NCBI RefSeq assembly: GCF_039654945.1
Contig: NW_027361807.1
Coordinates: 496,001 to 560,000 of the forward strand
DNA length: 64,000 bases
Source of the DNA: Dendrobates tinctorius
Taxonomy: Eukaryota
Direction: 5' to 3'
The notes under the pieces are model-generated. The model worked only from the letters and a program-made list of their open reading frames with translations. It was not told the DNA's origin and ran no database searches. Positions 1,501-63,556 of the stretch are shown piece by piece. Made by a program: the position numbers and the translations under genes. The stretch's first letter is position 1; every line of letters starts with the position of its first letter.

Positions 1501-2340
1501 GTACCCATTGAAAGCAAAGTAGCCAGGCCGCAAGCCGGCCGCTGTTACCGAAACCCACAGTCCTACAGGGGGTCCATGTCCCATTAGCACTATGGATCCA
1601 GCCTTCAGTGCCAGTTCCCGCAGCCCACATAGGAGTCACCTAAACTGCAGGCACCGTAGAGTCGGCTAACCCGGCCGCAAGACGACAGGACAACGGATTG
1701 GTGGCATTGACCTTGACACTACCCGGAAACAGCAGGCGTGCTTGAACCAGGCTGGGCAACAGGGAGTCCCCGTGCCAAAGACACTGCCAAGAACCAGCTG
1801 ACGGTGCTGGAACCCAGATGGGTAGCAAAAGCTACAAGAGCCAATGGCACTACCGAGGAACAGCTGACGGTGCTGGACCACGGTTACTAGGCAGGAGGTA
1901 CCTGTGCTAGAAAGCACTACCAAAGACCAGCTGACGGTGCTGGACCTCGGATACCGAGATGGAGGCACCTAGGCCAAAGGCTCTGGCGAGAACCAGCAGA
2001 CAGTGCTGGAACCCGGGTGGGTAGCAGAAGGTACCCATTGAAAGCAAAGTAGCTAGGCCGCAAGCCGGCCGCAGTTACCGAAACCCACAGTCCTACAGGG
2101 GGTCCATGTCTCATTGGCACTACGGATCCAGCCTTCAGTGCCAGTTCCCGCAGCCCACATAGGAGTCACCAAAACTGCAGGCACCGTAGAGTCAGCTAAC
2201 CCGGCCACAAGACGACAGGACAACGGATTGGTGGCATAGTGACCTTGACAGTACCCGGAAACAGCAGGCGTGCTGGAACCAGGCTGGGCAACAGGGAGTC
2301 CCTGTGCCAAAGACACTGCCGAGCACCAACTGGCGTTGTT
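1387..2340. repeat. 530-bp tandem duplication derived partly from the 199-bp unit
   Basis: Sequence at 1387-1800 reappears at 1917-2330 (offset 530). Confidence 0.9.
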
Positions 2341-5300
2341 GGAGCCCAGGGACAATCATGGTGTAGGCCGAGGCCTACTTGGTGGTAGTTTTAGATTGTT
2401 TGTAGGCTACAACAGACTGTCAACGTGCTCCAATTAGGCATCTGTCTCCACTCTGTTTCCAGGATTTCACGTGACCACCAACACCGCCAGTTTATGCGTA
2501 CAGCAGCCGTCTGCCCAATCCACACGTGTTGCTGTGTTACTGGGATTCTGTAATGTCAGCAGATCCCCTGATGTGTGTCTGCCACTGTCTCCTGCTCTGT
2601 CCACATTCCCACCGTTTGCAGTGGGAAGGTGGACAGCGCAGGAGACAGTGGTGGACACATATTGGGGGATCTGCTGACGTTACAGAACCCCAGTAACACA
2701 GGAACACGTGTGGAATGCGTGGACGGCAACTGTGAGCAGGAACTGGCGGTGTTGGAGGTCAGGGGAAATACTAGAGACAGAGTGGAGACAGAGGCCAAAT
2801 CAGAGAATGTTTAAATCTGAAGTAGTTACAATTTGGAGGCAGCAGCAGTTTGCCCTCCACACTGCAGGGGATCAGCTGACGTTACTGACCCCCACTTTCA
2901 CATGAACGAGTGTGTTTTTCTGTGTGGACAGCACTTCCGAGCACCAACTAGCATTGTTGGAGCCCAGGGAGAACCAGGGTGCAGGCCGAGGCATACTTGG
3001 TGGCAGTTTTACATTGTTTGTAGGCTACAACAGACTGTCAACATGCTCCAATTAGGCATCTGTCTCCACTCTGTTTCCAGGATTTCACGTGACTACCAAC
3101 ACCGCCAGTTTATGCGTACAGTAGCCGTCTGCCCAATCCACACGTGTCCCTGTGTTACTGGTGTTCTGTAATGTCAGCAGATCCCCTGATGTGTGTCTGC
3201 CACTGTCTCCTGCTCTGTCCACCTTCCCACCGCTTGCAGTGGGAAGGTGGACAGCGCAGGAGACAGTGGCGGACACATATCGGGGGATCTGCTGACGTTA
3301 CAGAACCCCAGTAGCACAGGAACACGTGTGGAATGCGTGGACAGCAACTGTGAGCAGGAACTGGTGGTGTTGGAGGTCAGGGGAAATACTAGAGACAGAG
3401 TGGAGACAGAGGCCAAATCAGAGAATGTTTAAATCTTAAGTAGTTACAATTTGGAGGCAGCAGCAGGTTTGCCCTCCACACAGCAGGGGATCAGCTGACG
3501 TTACTGAACCCCACTTTAACATGAACGAGTGTGTTTTTCTGTGTGGACAGCACTTCCGAGCACCAACTAGCGTTGTTGGAGCCCAGGGAGAACCAGGGTG
3601 CAGGCCAAGGCCTACTAGGAGCCAGGTGTAAAGCTGAGGTATTTTGACTTTGGAGGGAGCAGGACACTTTGCCCTCCACACAGCAGGGGATCAGCTGACG
3701 TTACTGACCCCCACTTTCACATGAACGAGTGTGTTTTTCTGTGTGGACAGCACTTCCGAGCACCAACTAGCGTTGTTGGAGCCCAGGGAGAACCAGGGTG
3801 CAGGCCGAGGCCTACTTGGTGGCAGTTTCACATTGTTTGTAGGCTACAACAGACTGTCAACGTGCTCCAATTAGGCATCTGTCTCCACTCTGTTTCCAGG
3901 ATTTCACGTGACTACCAACACCGCCAGTTTATGCGTACAGTAGCCGTCTGCCCAATCCACACGTGTTCCTGTGTTACTGGTGTTCTGTAATGTCAGCAGA
4001 TCCCCTGATGTTTGTCTGCCAATGTCTCCTGCTCTGTCCACATTCCCACCACTTGCAGTGGGAAGGTGGACAGCGCAGGAGACAGTGCCGGACACACATT
4101 GGGGGATCAGCTCACATTACAGAACACCAGGAACACAGGAACAAGTGTGGAATGCGTGGACGGCAACTGTGAGCAGGAACTGGCGGTGTTGGAGGTCAGG
4201 GGAAATACTAGAGACAGAGTGGAGACAGAGGCCAAATCAGAGAATGTTTAAATCTGAAGTAGTTACAATTTGGAGGCAGCAGCAGTTTGCCCTCCACACA
4301 GCAGGGGATCAGCTGACGTTACTGAACCCCACTTTCACATGAACGAGTGTGTTTTTCTGTGTGGACAGCACTTCCGAGCACCAACTAGCGTTGTTGGAGC
4401 CCAGGGAGAACCAGGGTGCAGGCCGAGGCCTACTAGGAGCCAGGTGTAAAGCTGAGGAATTTTGACTTTGGAGGTAGCAGGACACTTTGCCCTCCACACA
4501 GCAGGGGATCAGCTGACGTTACTGACCCCCACTTTCACATGAACGAGTGTGTTTTTCTGTGTGGACAGCACTTCCGAGCACCAACTAGCGTTGTTGGAGC
4601 CCAGGGAGAACCAGGGTGCAGGCCGAGGCCTACTTGGTGGCATTTTTACATTGTTTGTAGGCTACAACAGACTGTCAACGTGCTCCAATTAGGCATCTGT
4701 CTCCACTCTGTTTCCAGGATTTCACATGACTACCAACACCGCCAGTTTATGCGTACAGTAGCCGTCTGCCCAATCCACACGTGTTCCTGTGTTACTGGTG
4801 TTCTGAAATGTCAGCAGATCCCCTGATGTTTGTCTGCCAATGTCTCCTGCTCTGTCCACATTCCCACCACTTGCAGTGGGAAGGTGGACAGCGCAGGAGA
4901 CAGTGCCGGACACACATTGGGGGATCAGCTCACGTTACAGAACTCCAGGAACACAGGAACAAGTGTGGAATGCGTGGACGGCAACTGTGAGCAGGAACTG
5001 GCGGTGTTGGAGGTCAGGGGAAATACTAGAGACAGAGTGGAGACAGAGGCCAAATCAGAGAATGTTTAAATCTGAAGTAGTTACAATTTGGAGGCAGCAG
5101 CAGTTTGCCCTCCACACAGCAGGGGATCAGCTGACGTTACTGAACCCCACTTTCACATGAACGAGTGTGTTTTTCTGTGTGGACAGCACTTCCTAGCACC
5201 AACTGGCGGTGTTGGAGCCCAGGGACAATCATGGTGCAGGCCGAGGCCTACTAGGAGCCAGGTGTAAAGCTGAGGTATTTTGACTTTGGAGGGAGCAGGA

Positions 5301-8080
5301 CACTTTGCCCTCCACACAGCAGGGGATCAGCCGACGTTACCGAACCCCATTTTCACATGAACGAGTGTGTTTGTTTCTGTATGGACGGCACTTCCGAGCA
5401 ACAACTGACGATGTTGGAGCCCAGGGATAGTCATTTTGTAGGCTGAGGCCTACTTGGAGGCAGTTTAAGATAAGACGTTGTTTGAATTTGGAGGCAGCAG
5501 CAGTTTGCCCTCCACACAGCAGGGGATCAGCTGACGTTACCGAACCCCACTTTCACATGAACGAGTGTGTTTTTCTGTGTGGACAGCACTTCCGAGCACC
5601 AACTGGCGTCGGAGCCCAGGGAAAATGAGGTAGTAGGCCGAGGCCTACTTGGAGCCAGGTGTAAACCTGAGGTTGTTTGACTGTGGAGGGAGCAGGACAC
5701 TTTGCCATACACACAGCAGGGGATCAGCTAACGTTACCGAACCCCACTTACACATGAGCGAGTGTTTTGTCTGTGCGGACAGCACTTCTGAGCACCAACT
5801 GGCGGTGTCGGAGCCCAGGGAAAATCAGGTAGTAGGCCGAGGCCTACTTGGTGACAGTTTGCGATTGTTTCTAGACTACTACTAACTGTCAACGTACTCC
5901 AATTAGGCCTCTGTCTTCACTCTGTTTCGAGTATTTCCGCTGGCTTCCAACCACGCCAGTTGCTGCTCTGAAATGCCGTCTGCACAACCCACACTTGTTC
6001 CTGTGTTACTGGGGTTCTGTAACAGCAGCTTCTCCCTAGAGGTGAGCCAGGCAATGTCTCCTGCTCTGTCCACATTTCCACTACAAGTAGTGGGAATGTA
6101 GACAAAGCAGGAGACATTGCCGTGCTCAACTCTGGAGATGAGCAGATGTTACAGGACCCAGGTACCACAGGAACAAGTGTGGATTGTGCAGACGGCACTT
6201 GAGAGCAGAAACAGGCATTGTTGTAGGCCGGAGGAAATACTCAAAACAGAGTGGAGACAGAGGGCAAATCAGAGAACATATTAAATCAGAGGTAGTCAGA
6301 AGTTGTAGGCAGCAGGAGAGTTTGCCGTACACACAGCAGGGGATCAGCTGACGTTACCGAACCCCACTTACACATGAGCGAGTGTTTTGTCTGTGCGGAC
6401 AGCACTTCCGAGCACCAACTGGCGTTGTCGGAGCCCAGGAAAAATGAGGTAGTAGGCCGAGGCCTACTTGGAGCCAGGTGTAAATCTGAGGTTGTTTGAC
6501 TGTGGAGGGAGCAGGACACTTTGCCATACACACAGCAGGGGATCAGCTGACATTACCGAACCCCACTCACACATGAGCGAGTGTTTTGTCTGTGCGGACA
6601 GCACTTCTGAGCACCAACTGGCGGTGTCGGAGCCCAGGGAAAATCAGGTAGTAGGCCGAGGCCTACTTGGTGGCAGTTTGCGATTGTTTCTAGACTACTA
6701 CTAACTGTCAACGTACTCCAATTAGGCCTCTGTCTTCACTCTGTTTTGAGTATTTCCGCTGGCTTCCAACCATGCCAGTTGCTGCTCTGAAATGCCGTCT
6801 GCACAACCCACACTTGTTCCTGTGTTACTGGGGTTCTGTAGCAGCAGCTTCTCCCTAGAGGTGAGTCAGGCAATGTCTCCTGCTCTGTCCACATTTCCAC
6901 TACAAGTAGTGGGAATGTAGACAAAGCAGGAGACATTGCCGTGCTCAACTCTGGAGATGAGCAGATGTTACAGGACCCAGGTACCACAGGAACAAGTGTG
7001 GATTGTGCAGACGGCACTTGAGAGCAGAAACAGGCGTTGTTGTAGGCCGGAGGAAATACTCAAAACAGAGTGGAGACAGAGGGCAAATCAGAGAACATAT
7101 TAAATCAGAGGTAGTCAGAAGTTGTAGGCAGCAAGAGAGTTTGCCGTACACACAGCAGGGGATCAGCTGACGTTACCGAACCCCACTTACACATGAGCGA
7201 GTGTTTTGTCTGTGCGGACAGCACTTCCGAGCACCAACTGGCGTTGTCGGAGCCCAGGGAAAATGAGGTAGTAGGCCGAGGCCTACTTGGAGCCAGGTGT
7301 AAATCTGAGGTTGTTTGACTGTGGAGGGAGCAGGACACTTTGCCATACACACAGCAGGGGATCAGCTGACGTTACCGAACCCCACTTACACGTGAGCGAG
7401 TGTTTTGTCTGTGCGGACAGCACTTCTGAGCACCAACTGGCGGTGTCGGAGCCCAGGGAAAATCAGGTAGTAGGCCGAGGCCTACTTGGTGGCAGTTTGC
7501 GATTGTTTCTAGACTACTACTAACTGTCAACGTACTCCAATTAGGCCTCTGTCTTCACTCTGTTTCGAGTATTTCCGCTGGCTTCCAACCACGCCAGTTG
7601 CTGCTCTGAAATGCCGTCTGCACAACCCACACTTGTTCCTGTGTTACTGGGGATCTGTAACAGCAACTTCTCCCTAGAGGTGAGTCAGGCAATGTCTCCT
7701 GCTCTGTCCACATTTCCACTACAAGTAGTGGGAATGTAGACAAAGCAGGAGACATTGCCGTGCTCAACTCTGGAGATGAGCAGATGTTACAGGACCCAGG
7801 TACCACAGGAACAAGTGTGGATTGTGCAGACGGCACTTGAGAGCAGAAACAGGCGGTGTTGTAGGCCGGAGGAAATACTCAAAACAGAGTGGAGACAGAG
7901 GGCAAATCAGAGAACATATTAAATCAGAGGTAGTCAGAAGTTGTAGGCAGCAGGAGAGTTTGCCGTACACGCAGCAGGGGATCAGCTGACGTTACTGAAC
8001 CCCACTTACACATGAGCGAGTGTTTTGTCTGTGCGGACAGCACTTCTGAGCAACAACGGGCGTTGCTGTAGCCCAGGAAA
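2340..8080. repeat. Higher-order tandem array (618-bp then 818/819-bp units) built from ~200-bp monomers; each unit contains a ~350-bp imperfect palindrome
   Basis: Offsets 2467>3085 (618), 3085>3904 (819), 3904>4722 (818), 5917>6736>7555 (819). Monomer landmark GGGGATCAGCTGACGTTAC. Inverted pair TCTGTCTCCACTCTGT...ACAGAGTGGAGACAGA within each unit. Confidence 0.92.
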
Positions 8081-8144
8081 TAAAGTTCAGGTCATAGAAA
8101 CATGAACACAACAGGAGACCTGGATCCTGTTGCCAGCCAATTAT

Positions 8145-15765: not shown

Positions 15766-18295
15766 ATCATCCTTATTCTCATTTGCACATGGAAACATGA
15801 GAAACAATGGAATGAAACTGAAAGGAAGAAGAAACAGATTAGATATTAGAGTAATAACAACAGCTGATAAAAAGTTGGCATAATTAATAGATAATTGTGT
15901 GTTTAAACCTAATATAGGAGTAGTATCCACATCTGCCAGGTAATAGACTAATAAAAGACTAATAGTCATGTACAATACTTTATTAATTACAACATAGTCA
16001 TAATTTAAATACAGGCAAGGGAAAAGACATGGATGTAGCACATAGGCAAAAAAAAAACAACCAAGGGGCACAGAAGGCAATGGACTGGTAGGGTGTCACT
16101 TATACTGAATTAGAGATCACTGTGGAAACAGAGCCATGACATCCTGCAGCACAATCAAGTAACTGTATAACCCTAGTAATCAGACCATGTGGTCTGGTGT
16201 GCATCACAAAGAAAGGAGAATCTTGCTAACAATGTAGCATAATGCAGTGACCAAGTAAATATACCTGGTAATTAATATCATGTGGGCAATGTAGCCCAAG
16301 TTATAAAGTTATTATCATAATAAAAACATGTAACTGCCGGAAGTGACGCCTGCCATTGCCAGGGTAACCATGTTGCTGGCCAGTGTCCGCACATGAGGCC
16401 AATGACACCATGGCCACATGAGGAATCACATGACCCGACATCACCACCCAATAGAGATTCAGAGAGCTGGCCGGGGCAGAGACGCAGATGCGTGCAGGAC
16501 CACAATGTGGAGAGCAACAAAGCAGGGGTAATTAGGCCACAATAAACAATTAACAAAAAGGTGTGCAAGTGATAAAAAATGTTGCAGTATAGGATACCAT
16601 CACAAACAGCATGGCATGCCACACATATTGGTTAATGTAAACAAATGCCCAAATATGCTAATATATCATATTTTCAAAGACAAGGAGACTTATTAAGTAC
16701 TATCAAAAATAAAAATATACAAAAATAGCAAGAGATACACAACAGATATCTATACCAAATTACACGATGGAAAGTATTCAAGTATATTCTTGATAGCAGG
16801 CATATAAAGGATCCATGCATGCAGCTGCTAGTTCAGATGGGATACCATCAAAGGCAAAACAACAAGGGTATGGTGTAGGTACAAGAGATCTAAAAGTGAT
16901 AATAATAGCACACAAAATTAAAAAGTATTAAAAACATTACATTTGCCTATGTAGGATGGCAAATATGTCAACACAGCAGAACAGCGATCACAGAAATGGG
17001 GTGAAACTCAAATTCTCATTGAGGCTCCGGGGTTGGATAGTCTGTAGCATCCAAATCCATTTAGATTCCAGGCAGGTCAACTGTTGGGTTATCCCTCCAC
17101 CGTGAATATTGATGGTAAGTATGTCTATGTCTCTAACTCTAAGCAAGTCACTATTGCATTGGTGATAAAGTTTAAAATGACGTGGTATTGTCTTTAGGGT
17201 GGAGGCGTCCATGTGGTTGACGGCAGCCTGTATACTCACAATACATGCTTACGCACCCATACTTTGAGTTGGGGTGATGTGAGCCACATAAATTAGTGTA
17301 CAGGGACATGTCACATGATAAATTACATTTGTTGATATACGCGTTACATATTTTTTGATCCTGTATGTCTTTGAGCCATCAGAGTTGGTAAACGAGTTGC
17401 AAGCGTCAATATTAGAACAGGCTACACATCGCCCACATGGAGCGCATCCAAGCCTAACGGCAACACAATTGAGGAATGTAGTCTTGGTTTCTCCCACATA
17501 GTGACTACAGACCAAATGGTCCTGAAGGAGTTTAGAGCGACTCACGGTAATGGCAGGCCTCTCAGGCAATATTTTTGAAAGAATGGGATCAATTTTTAGG
17601 ATGGGCCAAGATGTTTCTAAAGCTGCAAGCATCAATTCATATTGTGAATTGTAGTTAGTTATAAATCTTATTTCTTCTTTTTAATCTACACTCCTATTTT
17701 TATGTAGCAAATCATTTTGGCTTGAGCGTCTATCTCTATTATAGGCCTTTTTTATCATCCTATTACTATAGCCACAAATCTGAGTATTAATTCCGTCGCC
17801 TGCTTTTCAAAATCATGGTCCGTGGAGCATAGCCTCCGAGGACGGAGGAACTTACCAGTGGAGACCAATCTAATAATATGCTTTGGGTGGGCCGAGGAAG
17901 AGTGTAAAAGCATATTAGTGGATGTGGGTTTGCTGAACATCTCGGTTTGGATCATGTCATGCTGATCTCTCCTTAATGTGACATCGAGAAATTAAATTCT
18001 TTCAGTGTCACATATATAAATAACATGTATATTGAGGTCACTGCTGTCCAAAGTGGCCATGAATTTATGAAGGGAGGAGGATAAAATAGATTAGATATTA
18101 GAAAAAACTTTTGACAGTGAGGCGATCAATGAGTAGAACAGGCTGCCACGAGAGGTGGTGAATTCTCCTTCAATGGAAGTATTCAGAGACTGGACAGACA
18201 TCTGTCTGAGATGGTTTAGTGAATCCTGCATTGACCAGGGGATTGGACATGCTGAGCCTTGAAATCCCTTCCAACTCTAATATGCTATGATTCTA
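15766..18295 (+). mobile_element. CR1 LINE 3' end fragment split by a Penelope-like insertion (CR1 parts about 15766-15850 and 18088-18295)
   Basis: Both parts match consecutive stretches of the CR1 3' end at 36600-36886 (TTATTCTCATTTGCACA...AGATTAGATATTAGAAAAAACTTTT...CCCTTCCAACTCTA). Confidence 0.85.
15851..18087 (-). mobile_element. 5'-truncated Penelope-like retroelement (RT C-terminus plus GIY-YIG endonuclease pseudogene at about 16988-18000)
   Basis: Minus-strand fragments FLDVTL; FSKPTSTNMLLHSSSAHP...GKFLR (RT thumb); CGRCVAC; NVIYHVTCPCTLIYV (GIY-YIG); LESKWIWMLQTIQPRSLNE. Flanked by the direct repeat AGATTAGATATTAGA. Confidence 0.9.
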
Positions 18296-31847: not shown

Positions 31848-32158
31848 TATCTAATGTGTATGGTCAGCTTAAATGTGTTTTTTTGGACTTTGTGTTTTTG
31901 GTATACCACTGCAAATGTTTATTTAGCTGTTTAGAAACATGCATAAGTGGTTTAATAATACAGTATATGTTTGAAGGAAATTTGAATACAAAAGTTCTCA
32001 TATTTAAGAAGGAACTTGGAGAGTCAGCTCATTTGATTTCTGTTGATTTCTGTGCGGCCTATTATGTTAAATGGAAGGCTATGTGGGGCCTATTATGTTA
32101 AATGGAAGGCTATGTGGTGTCATTTTATTATGTGGAAAGGTATGTGGAGTCCAATTAA

Positions 32159-32613
32159 GGCTAGTTTCACACTAGCGCTTTGGAGCGCAGCGACGGCCTG
32201 CGCACGGCCGCCGCTAAGCCCCGCCCCCTGCCGCGCCTCCGCCGGTAGCTCCGCCTACCGGCGCATGACGCTGCATGCATCCTGCGTCCCCTATCTTTAT
32301 CACGGGGGGCGCAGGCCATGCGCAATATGCATTTGGCGGCGCATGCGCCTTTTTGACGGTGCGCCGAGCGCAACCAAACTGCAGCAGGTTGCGTTTGGCG
32401 CAGGTCGGCGCACCGTTAAAAGGACACATGCGCCGCCAAACGCATACTGCGCACGGCCTGCGCCCCCCGTGATAAAGATAGGGGACGCAGGATGCATGCA
32501 GCGTCATGCGCCCGTAGGCGGAGCTATCGGAGGAGGCGCGGCAGGGGGCAGGGCTTAGCGGCGGCCGTGCGCAGGCCGTCGCTGTGCTCCAAAGCGCTAG
32601 TGTGAAACTAGCC
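32159..32613. mobile_element. GC-rich, almost fully palindromic Harbinger-type MITE
   Basis: GGCTAGTTTCACACTAGCGCTTTGGAGC ... GCTCCAAAGCGCTAGTGTGAAACTAGCC; the two halves are near reverse complements; TAA on the left. Confidence 0.92.
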
Positions 32614-32715
32614 ATACAGTTGTGCACAAAAAATTACATACCCCAGCAGAATTTGTGCTTTCTTGGCCTTTTTTTTTCAGAGAATATGAATGATAACACC
32701 AAAACTTTTTCTCCA

Positions 32716-42700: not shown

Positions 42701-44923
42701 GATCAATGGATATTGGCCTCTTTCCAGCTCACAGCTGTCTGCTTTCCCTTGGCTGATTATTAAAAGTAGAGGGGACTACACTTTGTTTTTTATATTAATT
42801 GATTTATTAATTAGTATAGTAAACTACACACGCAAAGCACTACTCCACTTGGACCTCCGCCTCCTGGTTCAAGATTATTATTTGTTATTATTTTTTATTC
42901 TAGGTTATTTTAAGTAATTCCTTATCCAGATTTGATTGAAGGGCAATTGTCCTACTCTTAACCCCATTTTGCTTCCTTTTGCAGCCTCCTAGCTATTACT
43001 ATGACTATTTTACAGCCATTTTACAACACCAAAGATCTGGTCACCATTGGCTTCTGTGGGGTTCAGGGTAATTACAACACTTTTTTTTTTACAAGAGAAA
43101 GGATGGTGGTCCATACTCTGTCTTCTTAAAAAGAGATTGACGTTTCATAGTAGACAGGGCTGCTGTACAAAGGAAGCAGTTCCACAGAATAGCAATTTCG
43201 TAGTTTTTATTTGTACACATTTCATGCTCACACAGAGATATTATTGATATTTTTCAAAAATAAACTACATTGAATGCTATGTACTTTGTTTTTTTAAAAA
43301 AGCTCTGTGCGAGCATGAAACACGTAAAAATAAAATACCAAATTGCTATTCTAATGTGGAACTGCTCCCTTTATACAGCAGCACGGTCTACTATGAAACG
43401 TCAATCTCCTTTTTTTACTAATCGATATGTAAAAGAGGGTTTACCTTCACTTGCCAAAGGAACTTCAGAAGCTGTACAGTAATATTCATTGGCTATTATT
43501 GTAGTTGTGACAATCACATCCCTTTCTGGTGAGCAACTCCATAACTCCCTTATCATCTTTACCTTTCACCCTATAAGCGCTTGCCCCCCACTTTTTTTTC
43601 TCCTTGGATTGGTAGCACACATTTCATATTACTTTTTTAAATTCATCCAAAATTTACAACCTTTTTTACTCTATCATTTGTCATTTTAGCTCATCCAATA
43701 TAACAATTATAATTACATAGCTGCTATTATAAATGGATCACGTTGAAAGTGTGCCGTTAATGTGTCCCATTCCTATTGTGACCTCTTAATTCTGTGATTA
43801 TTTGTCTTTATTTCCCAATCCAGATACCTGTGCAGCCATCAGACTCAAATGGCTGAAGTGCTTTGTGTGTAAAACAGTGATAAGAGGCCGGTGATAGGAG
43901 TTATTGATCAGATTTCCACAAGTCTCCATTGCTCAGCATGTGCTGGAGATAAAGCCTCCATATAAATGCTGGTATCAGTACATTACTGTCACTGAACATT
44001 CTAGGAATAGGCTTTTTGCTGTTCACTTCACTTCATAATGGACAGCGCGTTCCCCTCTCAGGACAACTTAGGATCCATGATTCTTCTAACTAACAAGACC
44101 AATGTAAGTAGAGAAGCTACAATATGGCTCAGCTAGGTAATGCAGCTTGTATGTTGTGGTGCAAAAAGTCATACATGGGCCCTAGGGTTAGATCAGTAGG
44201 TAGTGGGATTGGGACACAATTTATTTATTTATGCATTCATTTATATGTTTAAATACAACATTTGATTTTAAATTTCTTTGCTAGCATACATGTCTGTTTT
44301 AATGTACAGCACACGGAAGGCATCCTTGTGTTGACCATTAAATCATGAACCTTTTCATTGACAGGTTTAAATTTGACACCACAAATTGGACCAATATTTA
44401 ACATAGTTCTGTGAAAAGACCCATAGACTATATTTTGTACATGTAATTTGTACAACAAAGAAAACATGCATGTGAAAATTGGACACGTCAGTGGGGCCTT
44501 ACTCAGATCTGAGAGCTGTACAATAAACTGTGTTCAACCAAGAGACATCATCTTAAGCTTTAGTGACTGAGGGTCCATTCTAAACATCAGCCTTGGGCAC
44601 CAAGAATGAGCATTCCCCCTCTGACTGGGTCAACTACATACCCACCCATAACGTAAACAGGTTTTTCCCCAAAATACAAGATTCCCCTATTCATAAGGGA
44701 TAACTCCTTGATTGCTTGAGGTTGAACTCTGGGACCCCAGAAAATCTGATGATGGGATTCTGGAACCCTGGGAATGAAGGTTATTTGTGTCTGCTCCAGG
44801 CATTGTAGGAGTGTTAGAATAGGTGAGCAGTGTGCCTTGCTTTCTTTTGCTGTCACGCAGACAATCAATGAATGAAGTGGAATGCAGAGCCCCGTTTTGA
44901 GGATTCTGTGGCCCCATTCTAAA

Positions 44924-46862: not shown

Positions 46863-47830
46863 TATTTTACAAGTTATTTACACAACCCAAAATGGATGAA
46901 TATTATCCATTATTATTGTATGCTTGATTGTTTAGGGAAATCAATATCCTGTTCTGGGGGGGCATGAATGTAAGGCCTCATTATATATGTGTTTTTCACA
47001 GATAGAACACATACCCATTAAAGTCTATGACAATGTTCACATGTTCCTTTTTTTGCAGACCAGATGGCCATCAAAAAAATAAAAAGAAGAGTAACTATTT
47101 TGTATTCTTTTTGTGGATCAAGTGAACGGGTCCATTAAAAAAATGGATAGCAAATGGATGACATCCATGTGTCATCCGAGTGCTATTTTTTAATGCTTAA
47201 TGGGTAGGAGAAAATTGCATTTTTTTTAACACAAGAATAACAAATACACTGATGGTAGTCTTTTTTTTCAGACGGATACAAAAAGGGGTTGTCTGAATGA
47301 GTCCTAACAGAGGGGATCCCCAAAATATATTCATACTTTTAATAGTGACATCACTACTGTATCAATATAATTAACATTTTGTAAGACTAGCGGTACACTA
47401 TATGAAGGAAATATGTCACTGTTGCAATTTTAAATAGCAGTTTCCCAGCAGTTATGTCACTTCTATAAAATAGGAATGATATTTAACTATCCCATAGATA
47501 AGGCAAGAAAATGACCAAGAACCAGCAAAAATCTGAGCACATTTGTAATAAAATATCATAGCAGAGATGCACCTGAATACTATTTATACCAGCAAAAAGT
47601 GACAAAATGGTGCTCGGAGGTCTCATAAATAAATGACAAAAATAGATAAAAAGCAGAGCAATACAATGGAGGAGCACCTAGGCAAATATATAGTAAAGTT
47701 TGTAAATTGTTTAGTATGCTTCCCAGTGCCTGTAGTATATATCACAGTGGAGAGTACAAATATGAAGTATACAATTGAAAGCACTTATATCATGTGATGA
47801 TGAGAAGACCTAATTTCCGGGTGTCCCTGG

Positions 47831-47870
47831 TGCCCCTACGCGCGTTTCACCCTAGCTTTGTCAGTGGGTA
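47831..47870 (-). ncRNA. Minimal hammerhead-like motif in an AT-rich Penelope-type element (about 47480-49100)
   Basis: Minus strand UACCCA-CUGACAA-AGCUAGGGU-GAAA-CGCGCG-UA-GGGGCA. One mismatch in CUGANGA, palindromic ACGCGCGU, GUA triplet; weak stem II. Confidence 0.65.
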
Positions 47871-47931
47871 AAATATCACAAACTTTATTGAGAAAATACA
47901 CTCAAGTGACCCTAGCCTTATAGGTATAAAT

Positions 47932-48850
47932 AGTTATACCCATGATCCTAAGTCAAAAGGGCAACAGTCACTTCGATAAACATATCCCAAACAAAAATCA
48001 TCACGGAAGGTGCCGTGAGGATCCAAGAAATGAAAAGCAATAATGTTGATAAAAAATGTAAATTTTTATTGATTATAGATTAAAAATAACATAAATTATA
48101 TTAAAAAGACAGGACTAATGGTCTCCAACATGGGGGGTAGGAAAAAAACCAGCAAAAGGTTTATGGTATCTTCCACAGTGTGCAAACAGATGTATCAATT
48201 ATATAACAGAATTCACAAAGAATCAAAGAAATCCCTCCAAAGCCAAAAAAGAGCAAAGTATTAAGGCCTATGTTCCAACAGCAGTTACAAAGAACTTGCC
48301 AAAATTGGGTGCTGTGGGCACTACAATAAGGAAAGAAAAAATGGCCTGGTGTGAAGAATGGCTAGGGAGGGAAATAAAAGGCCGGAGTTATATCCTGGCA
48401 AGGGGCACAGCATAAATTATGACATGGATGAAGACAGTGCAATAATAGTGATGGAATTTTACCTGTCGCTGACCACTGTGAAATGAGGCCGAAGAAATGG
48501 CTGAAAGCTGGCGTTCTGCCCCGGGAAGAAGCAACTCATGCGAAACAGTGCTGTCGGGCGGCGGTGGGGGAATTAGGTCCGCCAGCTTTCAGCCATTTCT
48601 TCGGCCTCATTTCACAGTGGTCAGCGACAGGTAAAATTCCATCACTATTATTGCACTGTCTTCATCCATGTCATAATTTATGCTGTGCCCCTTGTTTTTC
48701 CTACCCCCCATGTTGGAGACCATTAGTCCTGTCTTTTTAATATAATTTATGTTATTTTTAATCTATAATCAATAAAAATTTACATTTTTTATCAACATTA
48801 TTGCTTTTCATTTCTTGGATCCTCACGGCACCTTCCGTGATGATTTTTGT
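47932..48850. mobile_element. Fold-back non-coding insert with two nested inverted repeats, a hammerhead-like motif in the loop and a 13-14 bp TSD
   Basis: A 47991-48146 / A' 48695-48850; B 48399-48513 / B' 48580-48694; TTATAGGTATAAAT at 47918-47931 and 48850-48863. Confidence 0.85.
48517..48560 (+). ncRNA. Type I hammerhead-like motif
   Basis: UGCCC-CGGGAAGA-A-GCA-ACUCA-UGC-GAAA-CAG-UG-CUG-UC-GGGCG. All three stems pair; GAAA and GUC are canonical; the first box deviates from CUGANGA. Confidence 0.7.
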
Positions 48851-50457: not shown

Positions 50458-52896
50458 CCCCTTCGCACCCGAGCCTGTTTTTGCCTTAGTGACCGGGCCA
50501 ATTTTTTCAATTCTGACCAGTATCATAACTCTACAACGCTTCAACGGATCCTACTGATTCTGACATTGTCTTCTCGTGCCATATTGTACTTCATGATGGT
50601 GGTAAAATTTCTTAGATATGAACTGCGCTTATTTGTTAAAAAAATCGAAATTTGGCGAAAATGTAGAAAATTTTGCAATTTTCAAACTTTTAATTTTTAT
50701 GCCCTTAAATCAGAGAGTGATATCGCACAAAATAGTTAAGAAATAACATTTCCCACATGTCTAGTTTACATCTGCACAATTTTGGAAGCATAATTTTTTT
50801 TTTTTAGGAAGTTATAAGGGTTAAAATTTGACCAGCGGATTTCTCATTTTTACAACAAAATTTACAACACCATTTTTTTGGGGACCACTTCACATTTGAA
50901 GTGAGTTTGGGGGGTCAATATGACAGAAAATACCCAAAAGTGACACCATTCTAAAAACTTCACCTCTCAATGTACTCAAAACCACATTCAAGAAGTTTAT
51001 TAACCCTTCAGGTACTTCACATGAATGAATGGAATGTGGAAGGAAAAAATAAACATTTAACTTTTTTCACAAACATTTTACTTCAGAACCATTTTTTTTT
51101 ATTTTCACAAGTGTAAAAAGAGAAAATGAACCACAAAATTTTTTGTGCAATTTCTCCCGAATACGCCAATACCCCGTATGTGGGGCTAAACCACTGTTTG
51201 AGCACACGGCAGAGCTCAGAACGGAAGGAGTGCCGTTTGACTTTTTCAATGCAGAATTGGCAGGAATTGAGATCAGGTGCCATGTCGCATTTGGAGAGCC
51301 CCTGATGTACCTAAACAGTGGAAACCCCCCACAAGTGACCCCATTTTGGAAACTAGACCCCTTAAAGAACTTATCTAGATGTGTTGTGAACACTTTGAAC
51401 CCCAAAGTGCTTCACAGAAATTTATAACGTAGAGCCATGAAAATGAAAAATCATTTTTTTTCCACAAAATGACATTTTAGCCCCCAATTTTTGTTTTCAC
51501 AAGGGTAACAGGAGAAATTGGACCCCAAAAGTTGTTGTCCAATTTGTCCTGAATACGCTGATACCCCATATGTGGAAGAAAACTACTGTTTGGGCACACG
51601 GTGGGGCTCAGAAGGGAAGTAGTGACGTTCTGGAATGCAGACTTTGATGGAATGGTCAGCGGGTGTCATGTCGCGTTTGCAGAGCCCCTGATGTACCTAA
51701 ACAGTGGAAACCCCCCACAAATGACCCCATTTTGGAAACTAGACCCCCCAAGGAAGTTATCTAGATGTGTGGTGAGCACTTTGAACCCCAAGTGTTTCAC
51801 TAAAGTTTATAATGTAGAGCCGTGAAAATAAAAAAAATCATTTTTTTTCCACAAAAATGATCTTTTAGCCCCCAATTTTTATTTTCACAAGGGTAACAGG
51901 AGATATTGGACCCTAAGAGTTGTTGTCCAATTTGTCCTGAGTACGCTGGTATCCCATATGTGGGAGAAAACTACTGTTTGGGTACACGTCGGGGCTCTGA
52001 AGGGAAGTAGTGACGTTCTGAAATGCAGATTTTGATGGAATGGTCTGCGGGCGTCATGTTGCGTTTACAGAGCCCCTGATGTACCTAAACAGTGGAAACC
52101 CCCAATTCTAATTCCAACCCTAACCCCAACACACCCCTAACCCTAATCCCAACCCTAACCATAACCCTAACCACAAACCTAACACCAACACATCCATAAC
52201 CCTAATCCCAGCCCTAGCCCTAGCTCTAAGCCTAGCCCTAACCCTAGCCCTAACTCTAACCCTAGCCCTAACCTGCGTGCCTGCTTTTTTTTTCTTTACT
52301 TTTTTTTTCTTTTTTTGACAAGATCGCTGCCCTGCGATCTGACTCATAGTAACGCCACTTCTCCTCTGATCTCACACTGACAGATGATCAGAGGAGAAGC
52401 AGCGTTACTATTTGACAAGATCGCTGCCTGGCACATAGTAACGCGACTTCTCCTCTGATCTCACACTGACAGATGATCAGAGGAGAAGCAGCGTTACTGT
52501 GTGACAAGATCGCTGCCTGGCACAGCTGTGCCAGGCAGCGATCAGCTGTGCCAGGCAGCGATCTAGTCACACAGTAACGCTGCTTCACCTCTGATCATCT
52601 GTCAGTGTGAGATCAGAGGAGAAGTCGCATTACAATGAGTGAGATCGCCGGGAAACAAGCAGCTTTCCCAGCGAGCGCTCTCATTGGCTGCTGTGACGCT
52701 GACGTCATCAGGACCTGAACCAATCAGGTCTCGATGATGTCGGGGGTCCCAGCATGCATTGTGCACCGGGATCCCCACGTTATAAGGTATGTGGGGGTCC
52801 CGGGGGGCACAAAACTGCCGACAGTAGATAAACGTCGGCGCTGCACAAAGCCCAGCAAGCGCCAACGTTTATCTACTGTGGGCGGTCGGGAAGCGG
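50458..52896. mobile_element. Non-autonomous TTAA-specific (piggyBac-like) DNA element with internal ~387-bp repeats, a telomere-like tract and a palindrome
   Basis: TTAA-CCCCTTCGC ... GGGAAGCGG-TTAA; landmark AGAGCCCCTGATGTACCTAAACAGTGG at 51295, 51681 and 52069; no transposase ORF. Confidence 0.8.
52101..52273 (+). repeat. Degenerate telomere-like (CCCTAA)n tract
   Basis: CCCTAA/CCCTAG hexamer run. Confidence 0.85.
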
Positions 52897-54885: not shown

Positions 54886-55570
54886 TAGCAAATCAAATTA
54901 GCAAACTGTATCAATTCACACCAGTGAAGGAGGGTAAGCAAGGTAAACTCTTTAAATACAAAAATACATTTTTATTAATGAATACACATAATAACAGTAA
55001 GTTTAAAAACCAATAGCAACGGTGCCTCACAATGTGGGGGAAGGCCTGACAAAAAAGCCCATGTAAGCCAGCCAAATAATAGAAAAATAGCAAGGTAAAT
55101 ACAATAAATATTATGAAATAAGCCCAGTGCAAACTCTCTGCATATTAATAGACAGAATACAAGTAAAAAAAGGCAAAGCCCTAAAGAAAGGTATATGCTG
55201 CCCCCTGAGGAAGTGTTGTCAAAACGCGCGTTGAGGTTGGAGAATGCCTGTCAAGTTCCTGACCTTTGCTTTGCACTTTATACTAGAGGTAATGTAACAT
55301 AATTTCTTATTCCCTACTGCCGTGCTTCATTTCTCCTACATGCACTTTACCTAGTGATATTTGTTGGCTACCCTTACGCACTTTGCACCTTATATTTTTG
55401 CCACTGCCTGTATGTAATACTGGGATATAAATCTCTAGTAGCAGCATACACCTTTCTTTAGTGCTTTGCCTTTTTTTTTAAATAAAAATGATTTTTATAT
55501 TTAAAGTGATTACCTTGCTTACCTGCCTTCACTGGTGTGAATTGGTATGGTTTGCTAATTTGATTTGCTA
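54886..55570. mobile_element. Second, older fold-back insert with nested inverted repeats and a hammerhead-like motif in the loop
   Basis: A 54886-54976 / A' 55481-55570; B 55165-55201 / B' 55441-55477; the arms are diverged. Confidence 0.75.
55201..55236 (+). ncRNA. Degenerate minimal hammerhead-like motif
   Basis: CCCC-CUGAGGA-AGUGUUGUC-AAAA-CGCGCG-UU-GAGG. Canonical CUGANGA and palindromic ACGCGCGU; GAAA>AAAA is consistent with CpG decay; stem II degraded. Confidence 0.6.
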
Positions 55571-55629
55571 GTCTCTAATAGAGACACTATATATTATGCT
55601 ATGGTTCATACATTTATGATTTAATATAG

Positions 55630-57370
55630 TTTCATAGGTTGAAAAAAGACCTAAGGTGAACCTTTCTCCACCACTTATACATTTTGTAACTAGTTTAACT
55701 ATAACCCACAATGTGTGTTGTGCTGAGAAAATCATCCAGCCCTTTTTTAAAAGCTGTTATAGTGTTTGCTATCACTACCTCTTGTGGTCGGCATTCCACA
55801 TTCTGACTGCACTAGCTGTAAAGAACCTTTTACTATTTTGCTGCCAGAATTGCCTTTCCTCCACCTGTAATGAGTGCTTTGTATGGTCTTTGGAATGAAT
55901 AAGTCTGTATAGGTCTTTTGTGTTGATCACACATACAGTATATTTAGGCATCTTTTTTCTGAGCTAAACAAGCCCAACTTTTCCAAACTCTCCTCATATG
56001 AGAGGCCTTCCATCCCTCGTAATAATCTAGTTGCACGTCTTTGAATTCAAACTTATGAATATCTTTTTTAAAATGTGGGGCCCAAAACCAATCCCATATG
56101 TGGCTTCATCAGTGATTTTTAAAGGGGTAACAATACATTGTGACCACGTTATTATATCTCACTATTTTTACACCTTAAAATCTTGTTTGCTTTTGCGGCT
56201 GCTGCTTGACATTAAGTACTGCTGCTCAGCTTACTTGTAACTAGAATACCCAAGTCCTTATCCTGTTCTGTAGTCCTGGGTAAACTCCTGTTTAATGTAT
56301 ATGCAGCAATAGGATTACTCCATCCTAGGTGCATTACCCTGCATTTATCTACATTAAATCTCATTTGCCAAGTGGCTTCCCATTCAGACATCTTATCCAG
56401 ATTGTTTTGCAATATTTTAATTTCAAGGTCAGATTTTAATATCCTACATAGTTTGGTGTCATCAGCAGAGACTGACACTTTACTTTCAATCCCATCCATA
56501 AGGTCATTAATAAAGAGGTTAAAAAGAATCGGTCCTAGCACAGATTACTGCGGTACCCCATTGCTGACTATACCCCATTTAGAGAACGTACCATTTATGA
56601 CGATTCTTTGATTTCTGTCATTTAGCAAACTCCTTACCCATATGCATATAGTTTCCTCCAGTCCTTGCTTCTGTAGCATCAGTATAAGGCCGGGGTCGCA
56701 CTGCTGCCGGCACTCGGGACCGGAGTGTGCAGCTGCATGTATTTCTATGCAGCCACACACTACGGTCCGTGTGCCAGCAGCAGTGCAGGGTAATGATGTG
56801 AGAGACTAGCGCGAGTTTCTCGCATCACACCCACAAGTGTGACCCCAGCCTATGGTTGTTATGTGGTACAGTATCAAATGCCTTTGCAAAGTCCAGATAA
56901 ATCACATCAGCTGCATTGCTAACATCCAAATTTGCACTTACCTCCTCATAGAAACCCAACATATTAGTTAGACACAACCTATCTTTCATGAATCCATTCT
57001 GGCTGTCATTTATTATATTATCTACAATAGATTTCTGCAGGTCATCTCTTATAATTCCCTCAAACATATTTCACACTACTGATGTCAGGCTTACCAGACG
57101 GTAGTTGCCTGGCACCACCTTCTTACCTTTCTTAAATATCGGTACATTAGCCAGCCTCCAATCCTGTGTCACCACCCCTGTTACAAGAGAGTCTAAGAAT
57201 GTAAGATACAGTGTTCTGTCAATTACTGAGCTTAATTCCCTCACTATCCATGGATGAATGCCATCTGGGCCGGGGGATTTGTCAATGTTTAATTTGCTCA
57301 GATGCAAGCATACTTCTTCATGTGTTAAAATATACTGCTTTACTGGATTTATAGAAAATGTTATCATTTA
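55630..57370 (-). mobile_element. Older CR1 LINE fragment (RT pseudogene), interrupted by a MITE
   Basis: KSPGPDGIHP, NYRLVSLTS, YLDFAKAFDTVPH, GVPQ*, SADDTKL, QMRFNVDKC on the minus strand. Confidence 0.93.
56688..56850. mobile_element. Short palindromic Harbinger-type MITE inside CR1
   Basis: GGCCGGGGTCGCAC / GTGTGACCCCAGCC; centre GCTGCATGTATTTCTATGCAGC shared with the 63360 element. Confidence 0.8.
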
Positions 57371-60576: not shown

Positions 60577-61315
60577 ACAAATTTCAAAAACTGACCGTCA
60601 CATCCAAGCATAAACATTGTGTGAACAGGTGCTTAACCTAGAGTCACCAACTCACATACATTCAAGCAAAAAAGGAAGCACACTGTAGCGCCATAACATG
60701 CAAATATGAAAATAGAAAAATAAATTGCATTACTGCATTAGAAATATGAAAAATTGAGAAAGTTTAGTGCATAAAATGGCCAAGTTATGTGTACCTGGAA
60801 GCCACGTTAAGGCATTTCTCATTTTCCAGGTCCCTGTCTATGCCAATCCTCACTAAGACTGAAGTCTCCATCTGAATGGGTCAGTTTTTGAAATTTGTAT
60901 TCCATTACTTTCTGACTGAGCACTCCACCTGTTAGCTGCAGGTGTTTTTAATCAAAGCAGGGCCACTTCCCCTCCACAAGACTTCAGTCTAAACAGAGGA
61001 TTTTTCATAGGTTCCCATTCAGATGGAGACTTCAGTCTTAGTGAGGATTGGCATAGACAGGGACCTGGAAAATGAGAAATGCCTTAACGTGGCTTCCAGG
61101 TAGATAACTTGGCCATTTTATGCACTAAACTTTCTCAAATTTTCATATTTCTAATGCAGTAATGCAATTTATTTTTCTATTTTCATATTTGCATGTTATG
61201 GCGCTACAGTGTGCTTCCTTTTTTGCTTGAATGTATATGAGTTGGTGACTCTAGGTTAAGCACCATTTCACACAATGTTTATGCTTGGATGTGACGGTCA
61301 GTTTTTGAAATTTGT
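60577..61315. mobile_element. ~300-bp-arm fold-back insert
   Basis: 60577-60880 is a near-perfect reverse complement of 61014-61315; 133-bp loop. Confidence 0.9.
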
Positions 61316-63359: not shown

Positions 63360-63556
63360 GGCCGAGGTCAGACATGCGAGAAACTCGGACAAGTCTCGCA
63401 TCTTAATACTCGGCACTGCCGCCGGCCCTCGGGGAGCGGAGCATGTGGCTGCATGTATTTCTATCCAGCCGAACGCTCCGCTCCCAAGTGCTGGCGGCAG
63501 TGCCTAGTATTAAGATGCGAGATCCGTCCGAGTTTCTCGCATGTCTGACCCCGGCC
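63360..63556. mobile_element. Palindromic Harbinger-type MITE
   Basis: GGCCGAGGTCAGACATGCGAGAAACTCGGAC / GTCCGAGTTTCTCGCATGTCTGACCCCGGCC. Confidence 0.88.

Follow-up and report, generated by a model that had tools for sequence, protein, structure and literature searches.

A probable Penelope-like pseudo-LTR folded back at its hammerhead motif, and one-arm gaps in a minority of inverted insertions

The window, as the whole 64-kb stretch of Dendrobates tinctorius DNA analysed here is called, holds a short insertion in which two nested inverted arms, A and B, enclose a loop that opens on a hammerhead motif, while the returning arms B′ and A′ lie side by side with the spacer between them missing. 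A second element near 48 kb follows the same plan. Does this layout record a reproducible mechanism? The initial annotation, made from the sequence alone, proposed an inversion starting at the ribozyme and then a jump in the downstream arm.

Anatomy of the Insertion

Self-BLAST supports both pairs of arms (Table 1). A and A′ span 93 nt and are 86% identical (80/93 aligned matches, E 2.5e-27), and the 37-nt B and B′ are 95% identical (E 7e-9). B′ abuts A′, and the 186-nt spacer has no counterpart in the right arm. Thus the arms and coordinates of the nested arrangement, with the hammerhead at the first base of the loop, stand as first described. The start at 54886 was also correct, but the end had been placed at 55570, which missed a tail running to ~55625. 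This tail gives BLAST matches to 10 other family ends (L002, L010, L013, L017, L018, L024, L025, L094, L097, and L329) and is missing from the left arm, the one-sided arrangement of EN+ Penelope-like elements (PLEs). Read against the family unit, the window copy consists of the inverted 3′ part of the unit and, after it, a second copy that sets out from the hammerhead, skips 186 nt, and continues to the end of the unit and the tail. The final GC of B equals the bases ahead of the hammerhead in family copies L011 and L020, a 2-nt microhomology as judged by eye; at the A′/B′ deletion junction the microhomology is 0–3 nt, its placement being ambiguous within a T/A run.

Table 1. Features of the insertion in window coordinates
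Feature	Position	Strand	Remarks
Whole PLE pseudo-LTR insertion	54886..55625	.	Inverted 5′-truncated copy, then hammerhead-starting copy with internal deletion, and tail
A, unit 3′ end of the inverted copy, without tail	54886..54978	-	
Spacer, 186 nt, unit middle, only in the inverted copy	54979..55164	-	Contiguous in other family copies
B, inner end and 5′ truncation point of the inverted copy	55165..55201	-	
Decayed minimal type I hammerhead	55202..55236	+	Predicted cleavage after 55232
Loop, unit 5′ part, single occurrence	55237..55440	+	
B′, last 37 nt ahead of the deletion	55441..55477	+	35/37 match B
A′, unit 3′ end, resumed past the ~186-nt jump	55478..55570	+	
PLE tail, ~55 nt, right end only	55571..55625	+	Shared with 10 other family ends

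No direct (head-to-tail) repeat of the unit is present in the locus, and a non-LTR retrozyme was rejected because head-to-tail tandem monomers are lacking there. A MITE or DNA transposon was rejected as well, since most family copies have no inverted repeat and the flanks show no target-site duplication. Splicing was rejected as the cause of the deletion because GT and AG are absent from its ends. Elsewhere in the unit alignment, a conserved donor-like GGTAATG and an acceptor-like T-rich CAG, at window ~55290 and 55045 (−), may mark an intron. Directly right of the tail, 55630–56300 is a very high-copy repeat, with contig depth in the thousands.

Presence of the Junctions in Sequencing Runs

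Both the fold-back and the deletion junction are spanned in run X1, which may be the assembly's own sample, by contigs with 0 differences across 55100–55412 and 55388–55753. Run X5 carries the label of another organism and has one contig over both junctions, at 55171–55521, with 5 differences and 1 gap. The insertion is old, as runs labelled organisms C and D contain the left flank-to-A junction at ~8% divergence, together with a contig that has the same B-to-hammerhead junction. None of the contigs listed for organisms C and D bridges 55477/55478; their strand-switch joints at 55131/55146–55473 appear to be derived from other copies.

A Decayed Hammerhead Opens the Loop

The loop begins at 55202 with the helix I strand of a hammerhead, the sole match to the hammerhead expression on either strand of the window; Rfam at its gathering threshold gave no match anywhere in the window. 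Minimal hammerheads are described in metazoan PLE repeats (excerpts of PMC4209133), and the motif here is of this kind and lies within the pseudo-LTR, in decayed form. G12 reads as A, so that the window copy does not have the intact core (CUGANGA, GAAA, NUH) of an active hammerhead, and the cleavage triplet reads GTT. The hammerhead fold is not the predicted minimum for the window copy (z −0.73), and the z-scores from folding four hammerhead stretches were all non-significant. Intact-core hammerheads of the same family are found in L011, L016, and L020. Genome-wide, a general pattern recovered 685 intact hammerheads of the same type compared with 0 for the control, and 134 and 194 further hammerheads show CpG-type decay, the window copy being among the 134. 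A separate hammerhead-like stretch with one core change lies at window 47780–47890 (−), beside the tail of the 48-kb element.

Family Copies and the Link to PLE Proteins

In the organism's own genome, of 6.36 Gb, 31 candidates yielded 61 matches. The other family copies form one contiguous ~560-nt unit in the order hammerhead–loop–B′–spacer′–A′, and the deletion was thus rejected as a family trait. The unit is repeated in the genome with a common 3′ end and variable 5′ truncation, as in EN+ PLEs, and an inverted 5′-truncated copy lies beside the 5′ end in L001, as well as in L094 and L097. The element at 54886–55625 is a PLE pseudo-LTR, probably of the Neptune clade. Many hammerheads of the same type have, upstream of them, the end of an ORF with a Cys-rich linker (CxxC) and a GIY-YIG-like motif; Pfam GIY-YIG matched one of two proteins at E 7e-4 and 20.3 bits, below the 22.6 cut-off. 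The Cys-rich linker between the reverse transcriptase (RT) and endonuclease is named as a Neptune feature in a section of PMC3846280. These CxxC motifs were seen in ORFs of families that share the hammerhead type. Among 47 loci tested, no full RT plus GIY-YIG ORF was found for the window family; an inverted ORF-end piece abuts its copy L002 (39% over 59 aa, E 2e-8).

The 48-kb element was initially annotated as different in sequence, and a unit-to-unit comparison confirms this, revealing no similarity between the two family units. RT and endonuclease matches adjoin units of the 48-kb family (L092 and L093). The window also contains the C-terminal part of a PLE ORF with a GIY-YIG-like region at 16991–17773 (−; tblastn E 1e-81), an array of ~820-nt units at 2300–8100, each with an imperfect palindrome of ~400 nt, and further palindromes or long inverted repeats, possibly MITE-like, at 32156–32616, 43128–43413, 52330–52652, 60577–61315, and 63360–63556.

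Copies Begin at the Hammerhead Whether or Not They Are Inverted

We surveyed 5′ ends at 113 sites from unenriched searches, 60 of which are in families known to reach more than 150 nt upstream. At 15 of these 60 classifiable sites (7 of 15 inverted, 8 of 45 solo) the 5′ end lies within 12 nt of the hammerhead start, an excess with p 1e-17 among the 37 sites that end within 780 nt. The hammerhead is therefore placed non-randomly relative to the arms, as had been proposed. The hot spot, though, shows no difference between the classes (7/15 inverted versus 8/22 solo ending within 780 nt, p 0.73), which speaks against the ribozyme as the cause of the inversion. The loop opens on the hammerhead because templates end at this point, and 5′ ends of units accumulate there in inverted and solo copies alike. 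A transcription start just ahead of the hammerhead is probably what sets this RNA 5′ end.

Of 74 segment starts in the 48-kb family, 22 lie at −7 to 0 from the hammerhead and 4 come immediately after the GTC triplet, where cleavage is predicted; the retrieval of part of these loci used a motif within the hammerhead, and breaks in the alignment account for some of the starts. The copies beginning right after GTC are L035, L043, L056, and L058 (corresponding to window 48518–48560), and the family core reads CGGGAAGA instead of CUGANGA despite these starts at the predicted cleavage site. Two copies start again in tandem, L244 from the cleavage site (+31) and L245 with a repeat of the hammerhead only. 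In the window copy, the fold-back junction lies ~31 nt upstream of the predicted cleavage site, and no junction is found at that site.

One-Arm Gaps Recur in a Minority of Inverted Insertions

The recurrence set comprised 225 sites, 153 with a reference at at least 85% and 72 without a close reference. Within the 153, the hammerhead arm contained an internal jump in 4/51 inverted sites (one being the 48-kb element) versus 1/102 solo sites. Once 18 loci had been checked over 10 kb, we assembled a manually curated set of 52 inverted insertions whose arms adjoin, from which both window elements were excluded; some of its members were retrieved by searches that favoured hammerhead-start copies. 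Junctions could not be placed reliably by automatic calling in the focal copy, L083, L265, L116, and L166. Apparent truncations in L257, L294, L310, L317, and L322 are later insertions and were counted as unbroken, while L102, L127, and L130 are reference problems; L127 and L179 were excluded from the counts.

Three of the 52 (L083, L116, and L166), from unrelated families, are nested like the window copy, and 7 further insertions lose the hammerhead arm after a short overlap. The hammerhead arm is broken in 10/52 inverted insertions versus 3/97 solo copies (p 0.002) and is unbroken in 41/52, the latter figure counting as broken L094, whose ~70-nt deletion is in the loop and not close to the stem. 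Nested jumps taken alone are weakly enriched (3/52 versus 0/97, p 0.04, or p 0.12 if L157 is taken as solo). The breaks track the opposite arm, as 9 of 10 lie at −5 to +60 nt from its inner end (permutation p 5e-4), or 9 of 11 when L094 is added (permutation p 9e-5); L173 and L175 are visible mainly via their own arm, which biases these counts toward positive overlaps, and without both the tracking is 7/8 (p 0.012). The corresponding values for the two window elements are 36 and 113 nt.

A held-out set of 120 decayed sites, 36 with an inverted arm, contains one clearly nested case, L375, with a 34-nt overlap, a 2-nt microhomology, and a loop from ~98 nt before the hammerhead. In L429, also held out, the upstream arm is deleted at the cleavage site; the one-armed candidates L380, L397, L434, L428, L460, and L463, viewed over 1.4 kb, were left uncounted. 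The asymmetric deletion noted at the outset does recur in unrelated families, therefore, but it is not typical of inverted insertions: the extra one-arm gap is found in a minority of them and is not the rule. Nor is it confined to the downstream arm, as had been claimed, given the upstream-arm deletions in L315, L265, L152, L133, L176, and L429, which in the first five leave inner pieces of 24–48 nt. The tail is on the deleted arm in some cases and absent from it in others.

The inspection of junctions suggested at the outset gave microhomologies of 0–3 nt in 13 alignments (12 loci), several of them poorly placed, with 0–2 nt in the 48-kb element, L116, and L166. In L116, L166, L277, L397, and L429, the break lies no more than 4 nt from the predicted cleavage site. 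Tight palindromes are not clearly more often broken (6/23 versus 4/29, p 0.31). Near-perfect palindromes of ~2 × 430–540 nt, centred on the hammerhead start and most with a tail on one arm, persist undeleted in L114, L186, L198, L199, L203–L206, L208, L212, L213, L218, L232, L242, L248, and L295.

How the Fold-Back and the Gap Might Have Arisen

We give about even credence to the reading that the window copy is a decayed PLE pseudo-LTR, inserted as two head-to-head copies, whose 186-nt gap came from a polymerase skipping part of a hairpin. The head-to-head copies were likely made by priming of reverse transcription on both strands at a cut. One cDNA, primed at the tail start site, would have reached the RNA 5′ end and the other would have halted early, after which the 3′ ends of the two cDNAs would have been joined. 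The arms may then have paired, either while the second strand was being filled in or in a later round of replication, with synthesis stalling after A′ and restarting near the loop at the 0–3 nt microhomology. The ribozyme would thus mark the template end and would not drive the fold-back. Two cDNAs from two adjacent start sites on opposite strands fit the one-sided tail as well as in vitro data on an anole PLE, for which the available sections of PMC11167929 describe both strands being cut and extended, with two start sites.

What favours this hairpin-triggered polymerase jump is that breaks affect either arm and lie near the inner end of the stem. Several observations count against it. Tight palindromes should be the least stable on this route, yet they show no clear excess of breaks, and many palindromes of 2 × 530 nt persist intact. 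Breaks at or near the predicted cleavage site point instead to RNA ends. In addition, the enrichment of nested jumps alone is weak, the L094 deletion lies off the stem, and the junctions of the 48-kb element, L116, and L166 have 0–2 nt of microhomology.

A possible, though less probable, origin of the gap is a template jump of the RT during integration of the same PLE insertion, akin to L1 twin priming; both processes may operate. Here the second enzyme, having copied A′, would land on the uncopied 5′ RNA remnant near the point where the first cDNA stalled or, in a variant, on a ribozyme-cleaved RNA end. Such a jump agrees with break positions that track the stop of the other cDNA, with the survival of perfect palindromes, with blunt junctions (L031), and with young nested copies that are already deleted (the arms of the 48-kb element are 271/271 identical, those of L116 100%, and those of L166 99%). 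It is also in line with the cleavage-site positions of breaks or restarts in L116, L429, and L244 and with the starts right after GTC in the 48-kb family. In the in vitro experiments covered by those sections of PMC11167929, no reads were found at the hammerhead cleavage site. By itself, the RT jump leaves deletions in the shorter, upstream arm unexplained (L315, L265, L133, and L176), and there is no consistent link between the deletion and the tail arm. Further, the organism C contig that shares the fold-back junction ends in 10 unaligned letters where the deletion lies, which hints weakly that the orthologue might lack the deletion.

A broader reading, possible but less likely than not, is that PLE insertions record their integration chemistry: two cDNAs from two tail sites, ends at a transcription start or a ribozyme-cleaved RNA end, and a second enzyme that jumps onto the RNA remnant. 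If so, PLEs would have a twin-priming pathway of their own, and there would be genomic evidence that PLE hammerheads cut templates in vivo.

It is unlikely that the window copy is an ordinary inverted PLE insertion that later suffered a random deletion, its apparent recurrence reflecting chance and the selection made by the earlier reader. The copy is indeed old (A/A′ 80/93), other indels occur in old family members, and microhomology-mediated PLE deletions are reported in parts of PMC3846280. Breaks are nonetheless commoner in inverted copies and track the stem end, and deleted copies with identical arms exist. Less probable still is the initially proposed sequence of ribozyme cleavage that starts the inversion and a programmed jump in the downstream arm. 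The 5′-end hot spot at the hammerhead and the ends at the cleavage site in other copies suit it, but cleavage-dead ribozyme mutants still insert in vitro (PMC11167929, same sections). It is largely refuted already, as the window loop keeps the whole motif and starts upstream of the cleavage site, the loop of L375 starts earlier still, solo copies share the hot spot, and most inverted insertions have no break. Although fold-backs are a known read artefact, an assembly artefact has next to no probability and is refuted by arms that differ by 14% and by contigs of two runs from two studies that bridge both junctions.

Comparison with Known Systems

Taken alone, the window copy is dead and ordinary, a PLE end with an inverted partner and a tail, and its structure is mostly known. 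Inverted 5′-truncated copies and one-sided tails in PLEs are described in portions of PMC8557442 and PMC3846280, the latter also reporting short overlaps at inverted junctions and microhomology deletions. Like the Neptune PLEs in these sources, the window copy has head-to-head copies with 3′ ends outward, 5′ truncation, a tail at one end, a minimal hammerhead in the repeat, and AT-rich flanks. It differs in its tail (~55 nt versus 30–40), in the lack of an ORF, in the decay of its hammerhead, and in the extra 186-nt deletion beside a short residual stem. The core boxes, the short helix I, and the palindromic stretch that replaces helix III are shared with the PLE hammerheads of PMC4209133 and the animal non-LTR retrozymes of bioRxiv 10.64898/2026.07.22.740005, both as partially available; the former also mentions opposite-strand hammerhead pairs 100–700 bp apart. 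Unlike retrozymes, the window copy forms no tandem array, and its unit starts before the motif, not at the cleavage site. Hairpin-driven fork stalling and deletion at inverted repeats (PMC12708500) likewise makes a long inverted repeat lose part of one arm, although the sections at hand state no rule that would place the break close to the loop, and perfect palindromes here often persist. The origin of PLE tandem and inverted structures and the role of the hammerhead are stated to be open in passages of PMC8557442 and PMC11167929. The survey adds three footprints: copies whose 5′ ends coincide with the hammerhead start, others that begin at the cleavage site, and breaks in the arms that follow the end of the stem. 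All three are measurable, and they are open to the existing in vitro PLE assay and to any PLE-rich long-read genome. In the literature covered, from which subscription papers mostly fell out of scope, as did figures and supplements, we found no account of 5′-end hot spots, cleavage-site copy ends, or break tracking.

In L1 twin priming, the 5′ and 3′ parts of an insertion come to lie in opposite orientation and overlap briefly where they meet. The window copy resembles this outcome in its inverted part and short overlap but differs in that both outer ends are 3′ ends, with no poly(A) and no target duplication seen. The recurring, stem-linked break in one arm is a modest new element in a layout that is otherwise mostly known PLE architecture.
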